Assembly: GCA_964016885.1 (NCBI GenBank)
Contig: OZ024758.1
Coordinates: 23,622,001-23,686,000 of the forward strand
Reading direction: 5' to 3'
Length of the DNA: 64,000 bases
Origin: Eledone cirrhosa
Lineage: Eukaryota
The translations under genes and the position numbers were made by a program. The notes beneath the pieces are model-generated. The model saw nothing but the letters and a program-made list of their open reading frames with translations, made no database searches and was not told the DNA's origin. Positions within the stretch are counted from its first letter, which is position 1; each line of letters starts with the position of its first letter. This document shows positions 8,290 to 64,000 of the stretch, piece by piece.

Positions 8290-8830
8290 TTCTGGTTTTA
8301 TAATTTCACAAAGTTTTACTAATAGAGAATAAACATAGACACAAGACTCTCTCATTGGAATTTACACATCAACTAGGTAGATATGTATGTATGCATGCAT
8401 GTGTAGATATGGATGTTATTGTATGTGTGGATGTGTATGTTTTGAGTTGTATGTGTGCATGTGTATATGCTTTGTATCTGTACATGTGTATATGCAGTTA
8501 TTAGAGGCAAAATTTTTGGAATGTTTTACATATTTTTACTGTTCCATTAATGGATTGTACTTGTAGTTTCCTAACTAGTTGTGTTCTTTCTGTTCCTGTG
8601 AAGCTTAACTTCTCAAGATTTGTATTGAGGCAGTTACTAACATATCCCAGTGCCCCAATAATAACAGGCATAAATCTGAAGGTGTAATCAGGGTGGAGTA
8701 TCTGCAGATTTCTCATCAGTTCTGCATAAATATTCTCCTTTTCACTAATCTTTGATATTATATTGGCATCTGCTGGGCAGCTAATTTCCACTACTGTGCA
8801 TGTTTTCTTCTCCCTGTCCCATATCATTAT
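8290..8830 (-). mobile_element. RLE-type (R4/Dong or NeSL-like) non-LTR retrotransposon 3' fragment in a (CATA)n tract
   Basis: IWDREKKTCTVVEISCPAD..I..K..EK..Y...F.F.PVIIGALG matches the restriction-like endonuclease C-terminus; bounded by (TATG)n on both sides. Confidence 0.8.
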
Positions 8831-8859
8831 GTATGTATGTATGTATGTATGTATGTATG

Positions 8860-9205
8860 TCAATGTGCGTGAACGACCAAGCAAATACAAGTTGAGAGAG
8901 AAACTGTGTATAAGAGGGATAAGCTATAGTGTGCGGGAGAGAAGACTGCGTTGCTATGGACGTGATGCGCATGGAGGATGACCACTGGGTAAAGAAGTGG
9001 CAAGAAATCCCAGTGGAAGGAAGACGCAGTAGAGGAAGAGCACGAATATCATGGGCGGTGGTGGGGGAGAGCTGACCTCAGATCGCTGAATCTCACAGAG
9101 ATGACGAAGGACCATGACGAAAGGAGAGATGCTGTGCTGAATAGGTGAATAGGACCCGTCCCACCCTTGGAAGCAGGGAAAAGCGGACGTAAAATGATAA
9201 TGATG
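8860..9205 (+). mobile_element. RTE-clade LINE 3' fragment
   Basis: RERRLRCYG...WVKK..EIPVEGRRSRGR-type motifs; tail cccgtcccacccttggaagcagggaaaagcggacgtaaaatgat(gat)n. Confidence 0.8.
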
Positions 9206-12934: not shown

Positions 12935-13125
12935 CCTGTTATTTTTCTCTAAAAACAATTTTCCAATTCCACCCTGCCCATCCCTTCAATCTTTCTAATT
13001 TCTCATTCTTTCTTCTGACGAAGGATCAGCGTCCGAAACGTTAAGACTCTCTTCCTGCTATTTCAAGTGTTAACCTAATGTATTCCTTCGATATACTGTA
13101 CCGATTGTGTTGTTATTTCTCTTTG
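12935..13125 (+). mobile_element. Hammerhead-bearing repeat, probable Penelope-like pLTR fragment (second copy ~45890-46075)
   Basis: The two copies share ccaattccaccc..tcccttcaatct...ctgtaccgattgtgttgttatttct; both end at (CA)n/(TG)n tracts. Confidence 0.6.
13011..13046 (+). ncRNA. Minimal type I hammerhead ribozyme motif
   Basis: TCTT CTGACGA A GGA tcagcg TCC GAAAC GTT AAGA: stem I TCTT/AAGA, core, 3-bp stem II, palindromic AACGTT in place of stem III. Confidence 0.7.
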
Positions 13126-15426: not shown

Positions 15427-17399
15427 GAAACATTTTTTAGTAAACTCGTAATGATGAAAATGATGATGATGATGTGTCCCTCTGAAGGATGTTTTACATA
15501 ACTGACGCCCTTCTCTCCAACTTACACAAGAGCTGAGAAAGAGACAGACATAGCGACACATATTTCTCTTTTGTTCTTACGTATTAAAAAATATCCTCAC
15601 GTGTTGCATTACTATAGACCTGAAGGTCTCAAAGTGGGTGCAATGCCCCCCTCCCCCCCCCCCCCCCTCCCCATATATATATGGAGGCACATGGCTTAGT
15701 GGTTAGAGCATTGGGCTTGCAATCGAAAGGTTGTGAGTTCAATTCTCAGACCGGGTGTTGTATTGTTTCCTTGAGCAAGACATTTTATTTCACATTGCTC
15801 CAGTTTACTCAGCTGTAGAAATGAGATGATAGGGACTGGGGTCCCTATCATTCCACTGCAAAGTGGCCGTGGAGGTGCCATGGCAAAAAAGCACCCAGCA
15901 CTCACTGTAAATGAGGTTGGTGTTAGGAAGGGCATCCAGCTGTAGAAATCAAGCCAGAATCAGTTCCCGTCCCACCCTTGTAAGCAGGGAAAAGCGGACG
16001 TAAAAGGATGATGATGATGATGATATATAATATATATTATATATATGTATAGTTAGTTCCACAACAAATTAGCCAACTCTACTCGAGAATGCACGTTTCA
16101 TCGAATAGATTTTCAATCTTTGTATGGCTGCAGTGAAAATCCGTTTGGTGAAACTCGTGTCCTCGAGTATGGTTTGCTAATTTGTTATGGAACTAACTAT
16201 ATACCGAACTCGTCCTTTGGACTGAGTGCTCTACTTACTACGGATATAACCTTTTGTTTTTTTACCAATATATATATACATGTATTCTATACATACATAT
16301 GTTCTATACATGTGCTCTACATACTCAACTCCGAGCTAGTCTTAATACCATATGTACCCTATGAAATCTTTAACCTCTCCCTATTTACAGATTGCTCAAC
16401 TTGAGGTAAGGTTGCCGTCCTACTTGGTTTCATTAAACTGCACCTAGTTTCTTAATGACACCTACCTACCTTTAATCATATTCAATCTTCCCCCTAGTTT
16501 CTTCATGACACCTACCTACCTTTAATCATATTCAATACAGATTTACCCAGCTTTTGACAGTTTTTTTTTTTACCCTTCTTTCATTTATCACTTTAACTTT
16601 TCACATAGTGAAGGATTTTATCTTACTAATCAGCTATTAAGTTAATATCATTCAAAGAAAAGACATTGCTTTATCATCATCACCATAATTGTCATCATCA
16701 CCATAATTGTCATCATCACCATCAGTTGTAGCAGTAGCTGTCTGATGTTCCATTCTTGCATGGGTTGGAAATGGATCATTACAGACCAAGTCGGTACTCA
16801 ATCAAAACTATTGGCCCCTTAGACTGGTTGGGGAGGAATATATCTTAGTGAGTGAGTAGAGGTTACAGTGTTGGTTGGAGGTTGGACAGAGAACTGCAGG
16901 AGGAGTGTAAAGAGAAGGAGAGTAAGAGATGGACATGGGTTGGGTGGGAGTGAATGGTAGGACTATGGTGGTTTAATAAGGGAGGATGATGGTCAGGGCA
17001 CTGAACGTGGGTAGGGCAGACACCCAGCCTTATGGTAATGTCTTCAGGTGGCAGATAGGTGATGGCTAGGGAGGTGATGATGGTCAGGGTACTGAATGTG
17101 GGTAGGGCAGACACCCAGCCTTATGGTAATGTCTTCAGGTGGCAGATAGGTGATGGCTAGAGGGGTGATGATGGTCAGGGCACTGAACATGGGTAGGGCA
17201 GACACCCAGCCTTAGGGTAATGTCTTCAGATAGGTAGTGGATATATGGTGATGATGGGAGAGCTACAATGATAATGATGATGAGAATAGTAACAAAATGA
17301 TGAAGGATCGAGTCTGGACAGTCCACATGTCACACCTTGTTACATGGTAGCAGTGTACAGAGGATACATTAGATGTGTGAGGGATGTAAGGGTGTAGAG

Positions 17400-36316: not shown

Positions 36317-36439
36317 CTGTTAAATAAAGGAAATAAAGTCAATATATTGTCTCAGTAAAAAAATGTTATATGAAAATTTATTTTTAAAACAGAAACATAC
36401 ATCAAGAAACACTGAAGTTGATTACACATATATATATAT

Positions 36440-36621
36440 AACGAAGGAAATGTGGTAAGGAACCAGGTGGACCATAACGCACCAAAGTACTCAATACTTA
36501 GGGTAGTAGAGTGGGTAATAGGAACCAGTAAGACCCCGACGGCTGAGCTCAAGCCGAATTAGTCCAGAATTAGCCGTCGAAACGGCTTGAGCTCAGCCGT
36601 CGGGGTCTTACTGGTTCCTAT
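36440..36621. mobile_element. Fold-back insert between (TA)n tracts in NDUFA5 intron 1
   Basis: 39-bp perfect inverted arms 36518-36556 / 36583-36621; same family as 49982-50330. Confidence 0.75.
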
Positions 36622-37827
36622 ATATATATATATTAATTGTTCTGATCAATCGTATTGTCTGGCAAATGCAGAGGTCGACAAATATTTTTCTGTTGCACGA
36701 GTCGACAATTTTACGTGGTGTGAAACGACAGTTGATCTAAGAAATGATGAGGTATAAAAATGTTTGTTTGATCTTGTCTCTTCCATTTTCTCCTTTCTTC
36801 CTATCACTTTTTCAGGTCAACACACTTCAAGCCACTTATTTCTCCCACCAATCTCAGAGACCCTGAAAAGCATCATGGGTTCTGCTTGTCCTCCTCAAAC
36901 TAAACCATTAACAAACACACGACACACACAGAAAGTACAGAAACACAGTGGTAGTCACAACATTGTATACATTCAACAATGGGTTCTTTATGTCACTGCT
37001 CGACTTGCTAGAGATCGCAGGCAAATTTCCCCACAAATGACACCCTATCGTCTTAAAAAAATAAAGGATATATTGGATAATGTTGTCGTGTATATACAAT
37101 GAGAAAAATGACGACTGGAACAGCTTTGATCCTAAGTCTGCTTAGTCGGGACGGACACAGTGTTAAACAACAACAAAAGGAATATAAGCACACTTTTATA
37201 AATACTGTCCCGTATATTAGACCATCTTTAGATATAGAATAACGATATAAAACTATATACATATGATGGTACGGGTTTGAAGTTGTGCCGATTCCTGCTT
37301 GGGATATATTTTGTTTTATTTATTTATTTATTAACGTCAATAATACAGGGGAAAAGCATAAGCACCACAAATTCTCATGACTATCTAAAACCAAACCATA
37401 TAAACAAGAAATGAACGATCGGACGAGGGAATCGCGATGCGGTTGCTCGACCTGTTTGAAATAACAGTCGAATCTCCTTCAAATCACATTTTAAATATAC
37501 AAGGTACAACATATTAGATAAACTACATCTAAAAAAAAGAACAACAAAAACTGACGGGATTGTCACGGCTAGAACCCTTTTTATACGTCTCTTCATTTAC
37601 AGGTGCATGGAGGTAAACAAGAAATGTATTCTTCAATGAAGGCTGTTTCAAGGGCACGACTCTCTTTCACAGTAAAAGGTAGAAATTAGTATTAGTAACA
37701 GCAACAACACGTCTGAAAATCCACAGGAGATATCTAGCGTTAGTTTAGAAGTTGCCACGCTAGGATTGATAGCTTTAGACATTGTTAGAATTTAGTAAAT
37801 AAACAAAGAACCAACAAGGTTACTTAC

Positions 37828-43452: not shown

Positions 43453-44724
43453 CAGGTATGGGCAACCTTTTGGGAGCAGTGTGCCGTATAGGACGTGGCA
43501 CATCATAAGGTAGGCCGCATAGGACGTGGCACATCATAAGGTAGGCCGCATAGGACGTGGCTCATCATAAGGTAGGCCGCATAGGACGTGGCACATCATA
43601 AGGTAGGCGCGCATAGGACGTGGCACATCATAAGGTAGGCCGCATAGGACGTGGCTCATAAGGTAGGCCGTATAGGACGTGGCTCATCATAAGGTAGACC
43701 GTATAGGACGTGGCACATCATAAGGTAGGCCGCATAGGACGTGGCACATCATAAGGTAGCCGCGCATAGGACGTGGCACATCATAAGGTAGGCCGCATAG
43801 GACGTGACTCATCATAAGGTAGGCCGCATAGGACGTGGCTCATAAGGTAGGCCGTATAGGACGTGGCTCATAAGGTAGGCCGTATAGGACGTGGCTCATA
43901 AGGTAGGCCGTATAGGACGTGGCTCATCATAAGGTAGGCCGTATAGGACGTGGCTCATAAGGTAGGCCGTATAGGACGTGGCTCATCATAAGGTAGGCCG
44001 TATAGGACGTGGCTCATCATAAGGTAGGCCGTATAGGACGTGGCACATCATAAGGTAGGCCGCATAGGACGTGACTCATCATAAGGTAGGCCGCATAGGA
44101 CGTGGCTCATAAGGTAGGCCGTATAGGACGTGGCTCATAAGGTAGGCCGTATAGGACGTGGCTCATCATAAGGTAGGCCGTATAGGACGTGGCTCATAAG
44201 GTAGGCCGTATAGGACGTGGCTCATCATAAGGTAGGCCGTATAGGACGTGGCTCATAAGGTAGGCCGTATAGGACGTGGCTCATCATAAGGTAGGCCGTA
44301 TAGGACGTGGCTCATAAGGTAGGCCGTATAGGACGTGGCTCATCATAAGGTAGGCCGTATAGGACGTGGCTCATAAGGTAGGCCGTATAGGACGTGGCTC
44401 ATCATAAGGTAGGCCGTATAGGACGTGGCTCATCATAAGGTAGACCGTATAGGACGTGGCTCATCATAAGGTGGCGCGCATAGGACGTGGCTCATCATAA
44501 GGTAGGCCGTATAGGACGTGGCACATCATAATGTAGGCCGTATAGGACGTGGCTCATCATAAGGTAGGCCGTATAGGACGTGGCTCATCATAAGGTAGAC
44601 CGTATAGGACGTGGCTCATAAGGTAGGCCGTATAGGACGTGGCTCATCATAAGCTGGGCCGCACTACTAAAAAATTCAAGGCCTTTCAGAAATCCAAACG
44701 GGCCGCAGTTTGGGCCCACGACTG
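43453..44724. mobile_element. hAT-type MITE with a 33/36-bp minisatellite (about 33 units, 43485-44665)
   Basis: CAGGTATGGGCAAC ... GCCCACGACTG; degenerate TSD ATCTACAC/ATTTACAT; unit gccgtataggacgtggct(cat)cataaggtag. Confidence 0.75.
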
Positions 44725-44957
44725 ATTTACATTCTACTTTCATAAGTAGAAAATACTAAGTTAAATAATTGTTTCTACTTTTGGCAATTATCCCAGTGTA
44801 TTACTGGTACTTTATTTTATCGACCCCGTAAGTTCAATAATGGTCTTATTGGTCTTAACTAGTAACCTACCCACCCTCTCTTTGTGATATAGAATGGTTT
44901 TCTGTAGAGGAATAGAAAGGGACCACAGATAAATAAAGTACTATATACCTATACACC

Positions 44958-45212: not shown

Positions 45213-46597
45213 ATATATACACACATACACGCACACACGCACACACACACTCATACACATACACACTCATACACATACACACTCACATACACATACATAC
45301 ACACACTCACACATACCACACTCACCGCACACACACGCACCAAACACTCACACATATACTCTCACACACACCAAACACTCACACATATACACTCACACAC
45401 ACATACACAAACTCACCACACACATATTCACATACATACATATACAGGGTCTCCCAAACAATGTATGCACAGTTTGATTACCTGTACAGACAATTTTTAT
45501 TAAAATGCTGTTGAAGTGTGTATACATTTTTTGGGGACACCCTGTTTATTTTGTTATTTCTGTTTACCTTTTAAATACATTGATATATATATATATATAT
45601 ATGGTGAAGGCGTGTGGCTGAGTGGTTAGAGAATTGGATTCGCAATCGTAAGGTTGTGAGTTCGATTCCTGGACCAGGCGATGCGTTATGTCCTTGAGCA
45701 AGACACTTTATTTCACGTTGCACCTTCTACCTGGAGTTGCGACCGATAGATAGTATTAGCAATTGGAAAGACCAACGGAAACATTGTTCCCTCGGTCCGA
45801 TTTGACGAAAGTCGATCGTTCCTATATATATAAAAATCATACACAAAACGCCAACATCAACAGTTTCCCAAGAGATGTCAACATGAATGGACCTACTATT
45901 TTTATCTAAAAACATTTTCTCCAATTCCACCCCGCCCGTCCCTTCAATCTATTTTATTTCTCGTTCTTTCTTCTGAAGGACTAGCGTCCGAAACGTAGAG
46001 ATCCTCTTCCTGCTATTTCAAGCGTTAACCTAATATATTCCTTCCATATACTGTACCGATTGTGTTGTTATTTCTGTTCACCTTTTACATACATCATACA
46101 CACACACACACACACGCGCACTAAAATTAGGTAAGTTCATTCCTGCACACGTAATAGGATCACTTAAGGGGATTCGTCTGGTATTTCCATCACAGACTTG
46201 TTGGTGATCTCTAGTAATCTCTTTTGTAATGACAATCTCTGTCGTATGTAATTTTACAGACGACATCTTGAGACCGTAATTACGTAGATTACGTTATCAG
46301 AGTTGCCGCTGGAAATTTCTTTTGCTCTGCTTCCACCTGATTGAAGGAGCATAGTTCAAGTTTGAAGATGGACAAAACTTGATAGTAAAAGAATATTTTA
46401 CCTGAAACTCTGAGAAGCTAATCTATGTGACAACATGCTGTGGATGTCTGCAGAATTACACAAGACCAGACGGGATAGTCATTAATGTAAAATAATGATG
46501 ATACGAGACCTCCAACAAATTTGTAATCAACATACCAGACATACCCCCTTAAGTAGTCACATTTTCTAAACGACACGCACGCGCACACATACACACA

Positions 46598-47004
46598 CAG
46601 GGTGTCCCCCCCCCCCCAAAAAAAAAATGTATACACACTTCAAAAGCATTCTAATAAATATGTGTATCAGATTTGTCAATTCTCCCCGACCGACAGGGGA
46701 GATCTCTCACCCACCTTGAGGTGGGTGAGAGATGTCTTCTCTTGTGAAAATGTGTATAGCTTTCATTATGTAAATTAAATCCCGCCGAGGTTGACTTTGC
46801 CTTTCATCCTTACGGGGTCGATAAAATAAAGTACCAGTAATGCACTGGGTAATTGTTGGCCTTGTGCCAAAAGTAGAAACAATTATGTAAAATTCCCCCA
46901 TTTTTCATCATTTCTCCCCGTTTTGCGACACTTTTTTCATGGTACTCTCCTTTGGAGTCTTTAGGGGTTGGCAGGTCTGGTGTATACATCTTTTGAACAC
47001 TCTG
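46598..47004. mobile_element. Tc1/mariner-type MITE containing a SINE fragment; short relative at 45446-45544
   Basis: CAGGGTGTCCCC..AAAAATGTATACAC / GTGTATACATCTTTTGAACACTCTG|TA. Confidence 0.6.
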
Positions 47005-47020
47005 TATATATATATATATA

Positions 47021-47194
47021 TTATTATTATGTAATAAACAACATAAGGCAATTATTCCATTTACCAGTGGTTTCTTAAAAGCAAAAGGTTTTGCTTTCAA
47101 TCCTTTTGGGAGGATTGAAAGCAAAACCTTTTGCTTTTAAGAAACCACTGGTAAATGGAATAATTGCCTTATGTTGTTTATTACATAATAATAA
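47021..47194. repeat. Perfect palindrome with 84-bp arms and a 6-nt loop, next to (TA)n
   Basis: 47021-47104 is the reverse complement of 47111-47194. Confidence 0.92.
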
Positions 47195-47500
47195 TAATTA
47201 AGCTCTGTTGCTTACATAGAGCACTCTTTTTTCCTGGACTTTTCCGATGGAATTACTTCATATATATATATATATATATATATGATTTTGTCATTTATTT
47301 TGTTTGACCTGTTTAGCTTGACTTGTTTTTTGGCTTAGGTGGTTAATGCCTTCTTGACCACTTTTTCAGTTTGTATGGCGTTTTAACATATGTTTAGCTC
47401 TGGTATTTTAACTATTGAGCGCTTGCCAGCATAACTCTCATTTTGCGTTTCGTTTCGCTTTTTCTACCCGCCGAAATGCGATTTTCGCTGAATTTATATT

Positions 47501-47552
<52 letters not shown>

Positions 47553-47553
<1 letters not shown>

Positions 47554-47846
47554 AGGAGGTGAGTTTTATTCTAGTACAATAAAGCAATGCAGATATCGGA
47601 TAAGTAGCACTCTACAGTTTGTAGGACTGGAGTATAAATAATATATAAGATCAAAAGATGGTTAAAAGAGTTCCATGTATTTTATTATGCGCATTTCAAA
47701 AACAAATATCATCATGCGATGACATTTGCGTTTTCGTCAGATAAAATAGGGAGACAATGTCATCGCATGATGATATTTGTTTTTGAAATGCGCATAATAA
47801 AATACATGGAACTCTTTTAACCATCTTTTGATCTTATATTATTTAT
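47553..47846 (-). mobile_element. Fold-back insert with ~93-bp inverted arms, carrying the complete hammerhead
   Basis: Arms 47633-47726 / 47755-47846; (TA)n on both sides. Confidence 0.8.
47678..47748 (-). ncRNA. Type I hammerhead ribozyme, complete core (Penelope-type short stem III)
   Basis: Minus strand reads TATTTTAT CTGACGA AAACGCAAATGTCATC gcat GATGATATTTGTTTTT GAAA TGCGCA TA ATAAAATA. This gives a perfect 8-bp stem I, a CUGAcGA core, a 16-position stem II (2 GU, 1 mismatch), GAAA, a palindromic short stem III and an AUA cleavage triplet. Confidence 0.85.
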
Positions 47847-48178
47847 ATATATATATATATATATGTTGTTCCAAAAAATGAATACACCAAACCTGCAAAC
47901 CTCTAAAAACCCAAACGGGGAGTAACATATATAAGGATCTGTTTCAGGTAATAGCCATATGTTTAATAATTGTCGTCATCCAGACTCAATGTAAACACCT
48001 GACACCAGGAGGTATACATCCACTTCCACTTCATGAGACCTTCGGGTCACCTTTTAAGGGGAACATGATAAACTTATCTCTTTCAACAGTCCAATAAATA
48101 CCCAATCACTTCACATATCAAGGAAACAGTCTTGTACCCTACATTTACTAGCCATGAACAATACACAATTAAAACCCT

Positions 48179-48694: not shown

Positions 48695-49031
48695 TTAGTA
48701 ATAAATATTATAAATATCTCTTAATATCTGATGATCTCTCATGGTAACCTAACATTGTTAAAATTGCTCCAATAAAGACTAGAAAGCTTCTGTAGAGTTA
48801 GGAAATACCTTAAGCTCTAAACAGTTACTAAACCAGCACCAAAGCACAGACATCCTATACCTCATTCAAAAGGTCATTCGACTAATTGTAAAATATTTAA
48901 TCTCCAATACATTTCAACTACAAGTTCACGTATATGTTGTTTCTTATCTCTGTCTTTTCTGTCATACAATCATGGCCTCTGCTCCTCAAATATCTATTGG
49001 AATACTCTTTCCAACCATAACCACTACCACT

Positions 49032-49742
49032 CACTGCTCGTACCTTCTGCTATTTGTATCATTGTAGAGTCTCCTCTCATGCCACACACTGCTCGTACCT
49101 TCTGCTACTTGTATCATTGTAGAGTCTCCTCTCATGCCACACACTGCTCGTACCTTCTGCTATTTGTATCATTGTAGAGTCTCCTCTCATGCCACACACT
49201 GCTCGTACCTTCTGCTACTTGTATCATTGTAGAGTCTCCTCTCATGCCACACACTGCTCGTACCTTCTGCTACTTGTATCATTGTAGAGTCTCCTCTCAT
49301 GCCACACACTGCTCGTACCTTCTGCTATTTGTATCATTGTAGAGTCTCCTCTCATGCCACACACTGCTCGTACCTTCTGCTACTTGTATCATTGTAGAGT
49401 CTCCTCTCATGCCACACACTGCTCGTACCTTCTGCTATTTGTATCATTGTAGAGTCTCCTCTCATGCCACACACTGCTCGTACCTTCTGCTACTTGTATC
49501 ATTGTAGAGTCTCCTCTCATGCCACACACTGCTCGTACCTTCTGCTATTTGTATCATTGTAGAGTCTCCTCTCATGCCACACACTGCTCGTACCTTCTGC
49601 TACTTGTATCATTGTAGAGTCTCCTCTCATGCCACACACTGCTCGTACCTTCTGCTATTTGTATCATTGTAGAGTCTCCTCTCATGCCACACACTGCTCG
49701 TACCTTCTGCTATTTGTATCATTGTAGAGTCTCCTCTCATGC
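49032..49742. repeat. 57-bp minisatellite, about 12.5 near-identical units
   Basis: Unit cactgctcgtaccttctgcta(t/c)ttgtatcattgtagagtctcctctcatgccaca. Confidence 0.95.
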
Positions 49743-49929
49743 TAGACATAATATCAAATACTTAAAACAATCCTTTCCTATCTAGAATTACAACCATATA
49801 GATTTCCTTCCTCGCTTACGTTTTTCATACAAGCAGCGACTTGGCAAATAAATAAATAGCACGGAATACTTGATAGGTAACTTAGATAGATAAACAGACA
49901 GGTAAGGAAGGAGATCAATTAATCTATTA

Positions 49930-49981
<52 letters not shown>

Positions 49982-49986
<5 letters not shown>

Positions 49987-50330
49987 AACGAGTAGGACCC
50001 CGACGCCTGAGCTCAAGCCGTCGAAACGGCTTGAGCTCAGGCGTCGGGGTCCTACTCGTTCCTATTACCCACTCTACTACCCTAAGTATTGAGTACTTTG
50101 GTGCGTTATGGTCCATCTGGTTCCTTACCACAATTCCTTCGTTATATATATATATATAACGAAGGAAGTGTGGTAAGGAACCAGATGGACAATAACGCAC
50201 CAGAGTACTCAATACTTAGGGTAGTAGAGTGGGTAATAGGAAAATGTTTCGACGGCTATTTCTGGACTGCAGTCCAGAAATAGCCGTCAAAAGGGCTTGA
50301 GCTCTGCCGTCGGGGTTAAACATTTTCCTA
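49982..50330. mobile_element. Two fold-back inserts tail-to-tail around a (TA)n tract
   Basis: Nested palindromes: 49982-50065, 50060-50242 centred on (TA)n at ~50143-50158, and a hairpin at 50250-50288. Confidence 0.78.
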
Positions 50331-50677
50331 TACATATATATATATATATATATATATAGTGTGTGTGTGTGTGTGTACAAACTACGGTTGTCACTCGCAA
50401 ATAAGGATAACTTGGTAGCATGTAGCAGAGACAAATACATTTGACATCCATTCCTTGTTTCAAGGAATATGTGGCTGCAACAGGGGTTAAGATTGCAATA
50501 GCACTAGGCTGGTACTTTCTTTATCGACCCCAAAAGACTGTAAGGTGGGATTTGAACACACAGCGCAGAGTGTCGGAACAAACCCTACAACTTCTTCTAT
50601 TCGACAGTCTGACAATTCAGCCAATCTTCTATCCATCTGTATATCTGTCACTCTGTCTGTCTATTTATCTATCTAAA

Positions 50678-63099: not shown

Positions 63100-63476
63100 A
63101 ATATAATTGTTTCTACTTTAGGCACAAGGCCAGCAATTACCCAGTGCATTACTGGTACTTTATTTTATCGACCCCCGTAAGGATGAAAGGCAAAGTCAAC
63201 CTCGGCGGGATTTGAACTCAAACCGTAAAGGGACGTAACTATGCTGGAAAGCATGGCGTCCGACCCTCTACCGATACTGCCAATCAAAATATAATTGTTT
63301 CTACTTTTGGTTTGGCACAAGGCCAGCAGTTACCCAGTGCGCATTACTGGTACTTGATTTTATCGATCCCCGTAAGGATGAAAGGCAAAGTTAACCTCGG
63401 CGGGATTTGAACTCAGAATGGCAAGGGTCGTAACTCTATGCGTCAAAGCATGGCGTCCGACCCTCTACCGATACTG
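63100..63476 (-). mobile_element. Inverted family A SINE dimer; further + strand copies at 63497-63680 and 63817-64000
   Basis: Reverse complement of the last two array units, including the spacer acaattatattttgattggc. Confidence 0.9.
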
Positions 63477-64000
63477 TCATTATAATGTTATTTCGACGGA
63501 TTGGCAGTATCGGTAGAGGGTCGGACGCCATGCGTTCCAGCATAGTTACGTCCCTTTACGATCTGAGTTCAAATCCCGCCGAGGTTGACTTTGACTTTCA
63601 TCCTTACGAGGTCGATAAAATAAAGTACCAGTAATGCACTGGGTAATTGCTGGCCTTGTGCCTAAAGTAGAAACAGTTATTTCGACAACTAGGAATTGTT
63701 TATAAAAGGAAGAAAAAAAATGATTTTATTAACATAATCGTGATCTGTAACTTCTTTGCATAATTTTATCGAAAACATGCATTAATAAGCTTTTGAGGAA
63801 ACAGTCACAGAAGATATTGGCAGTATCGGTAGAGGGTCAGACGTCATGCTTTGCAGCATAGTTACGTCCCTTTACGATCTGAGTTCAAATCCCGCCGAGG
63901 TTGACTTTGCCTTTCAACCTTACGGGGTCGATAAAATAAAGTACCAGTAATGCACTGGGATAATTGTTAGCCTTGTGCCAAAAGTAGAAACAATTATTTC

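Follow-up and report, generated by a model that had tools for sequence, protein, structure and literature searches.

Penelope-like elements (PLEs) carry hammerhead ribozymes at their ends, and inverted truncated copies, an optional tail and a bias towards (TA)n targets have all been published for them (PMC8557442, PMC3846280). The PLE hammerheads described in PMC4209133 show no activity as monomers and low activity as dimers. The hammerhead of a PLE from Anolis required protein for cleavage, and insertion in vitro did not depend on the hammerhead; two reverse transcription start sites explain the tail of this element, and both strands are nicked and extended (PMC11167929). A published search for PLE cores used a spacer of 7–17 nt, and eight Naiads were marked with a second half of the core 35–50 nt away (PMC8557442). 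A specialist would thus expect PLE-end hammerheads, inverted truncated copies, tails and (TA)n targets to occur together at a locus. Here, we describe such a locus in a 64-kb window (the whole stretch of DNA analysed, 64,000 nt). It is probably a fold-back copy, inserted in (TA)n, of a highly abundant repeat that has a conserved hammerhead with a 16-bp stem II at its 3′ end. The repeat itself is likely to be a PLE or a non-autonomous derivative of one, and cleavage by its ribozyme is predicted to require a dimer or the help of a protein. The 16-bp stem II and an 82-nt tail are new features of the known PLE arrangement.

The hammerhead motif spans 71 nt on the minus strand (47678–47748), where sequence, a descriptor match and folding identify every element of a type I ribozyme, as an earlier sequence-only reading of the window had claimed. 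Stem I is open-ended and consists of eight Watson–Crick pairs between its 5′ strand (47741–47748) and its 3′ strand (47678–47685), which agrees with the perfect 8-bp stem of that reading. The CUGANGA core, here CUGACGA (N7 = C), is read from 47740 to 47734 and leads into the long stem II (47698–47733), a 36-nt stem-loop with the GCAU loop recognized earlier (47717–47714) and 16 positions, of which 15 are paired (two of them as G-U) and one is a C×U mismatch. The remaining segment (47686–47697) comprises GAA (47697–47695), the 8-nt palindrome AUGCGCAU (47694–47687) and A17 (47686). The palindrome gives a stem III of 2 bp in a monomer and 8 bp in a dimer, completing the three-helix layout; the A15.1-U16.1 pair is present and position 17 is not G. 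From this layout, cleavage is predicted between 47686 and 47685, the same position as had been proposed before. The description of the ribozyme as apparently intact holds in that all elements are there, but the pair at the base of stem II in the window copy is A-U instead of G10.1-C11.1, which is usual although not absolute.

A custom descriptor that allowed spacers of 6–60 nt, written after the motif had been seen, singled out 47678–47748 as its sole match in the window. Among 300 block-wise dinucleotide shuffles of the window, a descriptor match with a stem I of at least 4 bp occurred in 45, with at least 6 bp in 8 and with at least 8 bp in none. The bare core pattern alone is not enriched in the window (6 matches, 3.51 expected), and the folding z-score of the 71-mer is modest (−1.78). 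The Rfam covariance-model search, which had been suggested along with the descriptor search, reported no hammerhead family at the gathering score or at E ≤ 10, and only hairpin-like families below threshold. Rfam likewise missed a minimal PLE-type hammerhead elsewhere in the window (13011–13048, plus strand; at 13015 in that search), which has CUGACGA, one extra A, a 3-bp stem II, GAA, a 4-nt palindrome and a short stem I, followed by a 3′ end on (CA)n; a relative at 45920–46094, 87% alike, shows a gap of 3 nt within the core. Exact-pattern scans returned no match in metagenome contigs and none in prokaryote genomes. Their one match among viral contigs was rejected as chance, since stems I and II are absent. 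The literature searched gave no earlier description of the repeat family, which may already be catalogued as a repeat, and no hammerheads with an elongated stem II in genomes, of which 2016 work on PLE hammerhead dimers may already list variants.

The spacer within the motif, at 36 nt, falls in the 35–50-nt range of the Naiad half-cores. The family could accordingly be a Naiad, a PLE with an N-terminal endonuclease, and represent the full form of the ‘half-core’ motifs marked in eight Naiads; Naiads, too, insert preferentially at (TA)n, leave inverted copies and have tails (PMC8557442). We consider this quite unlikely. To the eye, the 3′ ends of three Octopus Naiad consensus sequences are unlike the family, and Naiads are reported without canonical hammerheads in the available text of PMC8557442. 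Motif searches of the Naiad supplement to that paper, as of the supplement to PMC13282606, gave nothing relevant in text whose line wrapping may hide matches and outside which the O. vulgaris repeat library lies.

Sequencing runs place the motif in a large repeat family. A run search listed 23 runs, 3 of which held at least half of the query words, and four runs were compared with 47546–48000 at 80% likeness: X1 (organism A; 4379 matching contigs), X5 (organism B; 34 contigs), X7 (organism D; 7 contigs) and X21 (organism A, RAD reads; 6163 reads), where the counts for X1 and X21 also take in a second repeat at 47882–47930. That stretch is a piece of another high-copy repeat, related to 46939–46995. 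The family is found under three organism labels (A, B and D), and none of the 23 runs listed is an RNA run with the family. Depth in X1 over the core is roughly 2.4–2.9 × 10^5, against 6.2 in the unique right flank (a single contig), a ratio of about 4 × 10^4 that is a rough guide and not a copy number. X1 may be the sample from which the window derives, and should not be counted as independent evidence of the locus as such. The hammerhead-bearing repeat is very abundant.

The family has two 3′ ends, 82 nt apart at 47551 and 47633, each followed by a TA run. Among the loose ends listed, copies ending into TA at 47551 and 47633 number 20 and 53 contigs in X1 and 1704 and 272 reads in X21, respectively. 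The two ends define an optional 82-nt 3′ tail (47551–47632, minus strand), which is present in the long arm only and holds AATAAA at 47570–47565; the predicted cut lies some 50 nt from one family end and about 135 nt from the other. Inside the tail is the 3′ end of the element proper, a pLTR-like part (47633–47756, minus strand). Other copies continue past 47756, and the window copy is therefore 5′-truncated there. Behind this position the other copies share a different sequence, of which 30 nt was seen (20 contigs in X1, 3 in X5 and 452 reads in X21). Folded X1 depth is 0.91 × 10^6 across the tail and 2.0 × 10^6 just inside it, and falls over stem II (0.76 × 10^6) and the core (0.32 × 10^6). 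At the predicted cut X1 has no depth step (2.0 × 10^6 below, 1.8 × 10^6 above; edge effects and divergence confound the comparison), and therefore gives no sign of cleaved RNA as a template. No open frame runs across the element, and Pfam found no family in 4 of the 43 window ORFs listed.

Facing the long arm is an inverted copy of the element's 3′ end with a deeper truncation (47756–47847, plus strand), delineated by self-comparison and by similar joints in X1. This arm starts inside stem II, has neither CUGANGA nor the tail and runs into (TA)n. It is the inverted plus-strand arm noticed beside the hammerhead in the sequence-only reading, and it is real: the two arms are identical except for a 2-nt gap (47756–47849 in an ungapped comparison), and the same gap occurs as a family variant. 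The head-to-head junction of the two copies overlaps by 1 nt. To the left lies a microsatellite of (TA)n and then short (TG)n (47503–47550), to the right one of (TA)n (47844–47864); family ends adjoin (TA)n, within which a target-site duplication is not distinguishable. The locus is a 5′-truncated copy joined head-to-head to an inverted tail-less copy and inserted in (TA)n. X1 contains 11 more fold-back-like joints with other breakpoints, each in one contig and each weak singly, as the sides of most fall short of 30 nt and, in 7 joints, are separated by unknown letters.

The end of the element thus shows a hammerhead in the 3′ end or pLTR, 5′ truncation with a head-to-head inverted copy, an optional tail and an AT-rich or (TA)n target, all features of PLE ends. 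From this end anatomy we infer PLE membership, and any clade would likewise be an inference; no RT/GIY-YIG ORF was linked to the family in the window copy or in the 30 nt of 5′ continuation seen. The earlier reading had left the choice between a Penelope-like and a retrozyme-like terminus with a long stem II. Its high copy number, the (TA)n at both 3′ ends, the truncated 5′ side, the inverted head-to-head copy and tolerated variation speak for the former; a tandem retrozyme is not supported. A non-LTR retrozyme, in which tandem repeats of 150–450 bp are cut to circularising monomers, would share with the family a type I hammerhead, high copy number and low GC, and retrozymes have been proposed as PLE derivatives (bioRxiv 10.64898/2026.07.22.740005). 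It is nevertheless very unlikely here: the best-supported of the loose ends listed are (TA)n and not a next monomer, the window has no direct-repeat copy that would make a head-to-tail unit with the hammerhead, and the helices differ in size from the canonical 6 and 4 bp of retrozymes. No partial direct tandem (pLTR) is present in the window or among the loose ends listed.

For a PLE, the fold-back could have arisen as follows. The GIY-YIG/RT protein of the element would nick both strands of the TA run, and reverse transcription would be primed twice on one RNA, from the start sites 47551 and 47633. One cDNA would stop 8 nt past stem I and the other inside stem II, and the two would then be joined. 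We favour two priming events because the short arm ends at the other family 3′ end and because both strands are nicked and extended by the Anolis protein, which uses two start sites (PMC11167929). As a tentative alternative, of real but lesser probability, the inverted arm of the same element may come from a cDNA that folded back and primed itself on stem II, without a second priming on RNA. Such self-priming has been proposed before for inverted PLE junctions (PMC3846280), and it fits both the identity of the arms outside the 2-nt gap and the inner ends of the inverted arms, which lie within stem II in 7 of the 11 other X1 joints, although these joints are detectable only for mirror positions of about 47650–47726 and most of their sides are shorter than 30 nt. 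Yet the inverted arm ends exactly at the second family 3′ end (the mirror of 47633), which is unexpected for a run-off copy, and a junction overlap of just 1 nt also argues against self-priming. With two 3′ ends and identical arms, the locus is a clean case for separating twin priming from fold-back synthesis.

Another fold-back, at 47019–47196, has 86-nt arms and a 6-nt spacer. Each arm contains the 3′ portion of a distinct hammerhead, comprising an 11-bp stem II, GAA and, as in Hydra-clade motifs, a 4-bp stem III with a 1-nt loop, and breaks off within the CUGANGA core. Further inverted-repeat elements lie at 63103–63680 and 1016–1532 (arms of 183 and 144 nt), and a nested palindromic repeat in (TA)n at 49955–50358 has a second copy 13 kb away (36428–36622); no hammerhead half was found in this repeat. 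The window also contains a minisatellite of mixed 28/31-nt units (44000–44680), a 55-nt tandem array with inner copies 98–99% alike (48862–49876), a weak tRNA match of 31.2 bits that is possibly a SINE head (15692–15749, plus strand) and an inverted 41-nt match between 44792–44832 and 46809–46849, which may be part of an abundant cephalopod SINE. From a SINE-like repeat and the microsatellite load, the host may be a cephalopod. An open frame at 8501–8923 (minus strand), in which Pfam found no family, resembles the end of an R2/R4/CRE-type LINE that encodes a restriction-like endonuclease.

Variation across copies bears on whether the hammerhead is maintained. Variants were counted at a frequency of at least 4%; the places beyond those listed number 4 of 33 in X1, 4 of 21 in X5, 1 of 15 in X7 and most of 69 in X21. 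Every listed motif variant at this frequency is of a tolerated kind, falling at N7 or in loop II or keeping a pair (11 of 11 rows in X1, 9 of 9 in X5 and 7 of 7 in X7). At N7, the only core position among the listed variants, U accounts for 59% of the depth in X1 and for 100% in X5 and X7. All C>N places in X1 are listed, which means that G5, G8 and G12 vary at less than 4%, even though G8 sits in a CpG with the variable N7. In stem I, 47747 A→G gives a G-U pair in X5 and X7; in stem II, pairing survives in all seven X1 variants listed at 4% or more (P = 0.0096, where 17 transitions would keep a pair and 13 would break one). Avoidance of constrained sites in X1 has P = 0.0008 on the listed rows, or 0.09 if the remaining four places all hit constrained sites. 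One X7 contig spans the motif with seven differing letters, assigned by depth to the seven X7 rows, and keeps 23 of 24 pairs (P = 0.0025). X1, X5 and X7 share the same subfamily differences and are not independent tests. On the listed variants, the hammerhead core is conserved and the stems are maintained across copies. With regard to covariation, which the earlier reading had proposed to look for in genomic copies, the listed changes keep pairs in stems I and II, but they are one-sided only, and no two-sided compensatory change was seen among the listed variants.

At the base of stem II, U11.1→C (47698) has a frequency of 1.6% in X1 and is carried by 174 of the 620 minus mates of X21. Without a linked A10.1→G (47733; 27% of X1) it disrupts the closing pair; together, the two changes would restore the canonical G-C. 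These unphased data allow for a G10.1-C11.1 subfamily, the one candidate for two-sided covariation. Among X21 plus mates, 1184 of 1988 carry a change at 47692 that breaks the palindrome, alongside 1142 molecules that end at 47695; this is probably one RAD locus. Six stem variants within 47707–47747 are A/G opposite U on the RNA strand. Editing of the hairpin from A to I before reverse transcription would give the same pattern, and the keeping of pairs may not all be due to selection; transition bias is the simpler cause of these six variants.

These data also bear on another reading, a MITE or fold-back DNA transposon whose hammerhead-like motif is dead or due to chance. The long terminal inverted arms and TA flanks could suggest it, and the modest folding z-score and the lack of an Rfam hammerhead match would agree with it. 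Variable inner breakpoints, the one-sided tail, the 5′ continuation in other copies and depth falling towards the 5′ side all fit retrotransposition instead, and variation that avoids the hammerhead core argues against a chance or dead motif. The transposon reading is largely refuted, and we regard it as extremely improbable.

Returning to the hammerhead at 47678–47748, we modelled its folding as a monomer and as a dimer. Stem III has a pairing probability of 0.002 in the monomer (71-mer model), and the palindrome duplex is modelled at −10.5 kcal/mol. Two 71-mers cofolded without constraint exchange their stems I and share an 8-bp stem III (−44.9), compared with −42.3 for the full double-hammerhead fold and −31.6 for two monomers. 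In these folding models the palindrome favours the dimer, as any palindrome does in such cofolding, and in the models the dimerisation need that the sequence-only reading had assigned to the short palindromic stem III is supported (−44.9 versus −31.6). This preference agrees with the activity of PLE hammerheads (PMC4209133) and with the protein-assisted Anolis case (PMC11167929). The ribozyme would likely work in transcripts of full-length or tandem master copies, in which two 8-nt palindromes could form the shared stem III.

In the window copy the prediction differs. A read-through minus-strand transcript is modelled as a hairpin of about 92 bp (−144.3 kcal/mol, versus −80.9 kcal/mol with the hammerhead forced), in which stems I and II have pairing probabilities of 0.0; without the inverted arm, stem I has about 0.3. 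The plus-strand transcript is also modelled as a closed hairpin (−153.2). The inverted arm lies on the opposite strand and is therefore antisense to the ribozyme within one transcript. The fold-back hairpin is thus predicted to lock the ribozyme of this copy in cis and keep it inactive. The suggestion that the arm supplies a useful second GAAA–stem III–cleavage half does not stand for a single transcript, where the arm is modelled as the lock; it could act as a partner only in trans, from a separate plus-strand transcript.

An abundant family with a 16-bp stem II that lies outside both Rfam and a search with 7–17-nt spacers implies that PLE hammerheads may be undercounted, and the family offers a natural panel of variants for dimer and protein-assisted models. 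On a broader and unlikely view, a class of long-stem-II hammerheads missed by Rfam and the usual descriptors might exist in the ‘ribozyme-free’ half-core Naiads or in an undescribed PLE clade, with the long helix acting as a stall or priming point that would turn tens of thousands of insertions into fold-backs, and hence put long dsRNA into host transcripts. A second fold-back family lies 500 nt away. Its own hammerhead has an 11-bp stem II and is interrupted within the core, a hint that this genome may have such a habit.

Compared with known systems, the family most closely follows the build of an EN+ PLE end, with a 3′ hammerhead, 5′ truncation, an inverted copy, a tail and (TA)n (PMC8557442, PMC3846280, PMC8969392). 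Like the metazoan PLE pLTR hammerheads of PMC4209133 (min-HHR, small-palindrome), the motif is of type I with a palindromic 15.2-16.2/loop 3 region, and those hammerheads are likewise mostly single motifs in truncated copies, with opposite-strand pairs and predicted dimers. In contrast to them, it has 16 positions in helix II, where 7–8 bp was termed ‘larger than usual’, 8 bp in helix I, where they have 4–5, no extra base between 9 and 10.1, and A-U in place of G10.1-C11.1 in the window copy (PMC4209133). The family resembles Hydra-clade PLEs in the hammerhead near the 3′ end, the 4-bp stem III with a tiny or no loop, the (TA)n targets, one listed inverted 5′-truncated copy and a cephalopod member, and resembles some of them in a stem II based on A-U or G-U (PMC8557442). 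It departs from that clade in that the tabulated Hydra-clade stems II have 3–7 bp (PMC8557442 File S2) and most stems III carry an odd loop of 1–3 nt, unlike the palindrome here; no sequence match to the family was found in the available part of that source, and the family is known here without an ORF (PMC8557442). Non-LTR retrozymes also form an abundant type I hammerhead repeat in animal genomes (PMC7229834), but the family differs from them in its ends on (TA)n, its inverted truncated insertions and its non-canonical helices, and no tandem array was seen. With Poseidon PAc of Anolis, the family shares two 3′ ends that define a tail, AT-rich targets and a hammerhead upstream of the ends, while its tail is 82 nt long in place of 30–40 and no open frame passes through its hammerhead and tail (PMC11167929).
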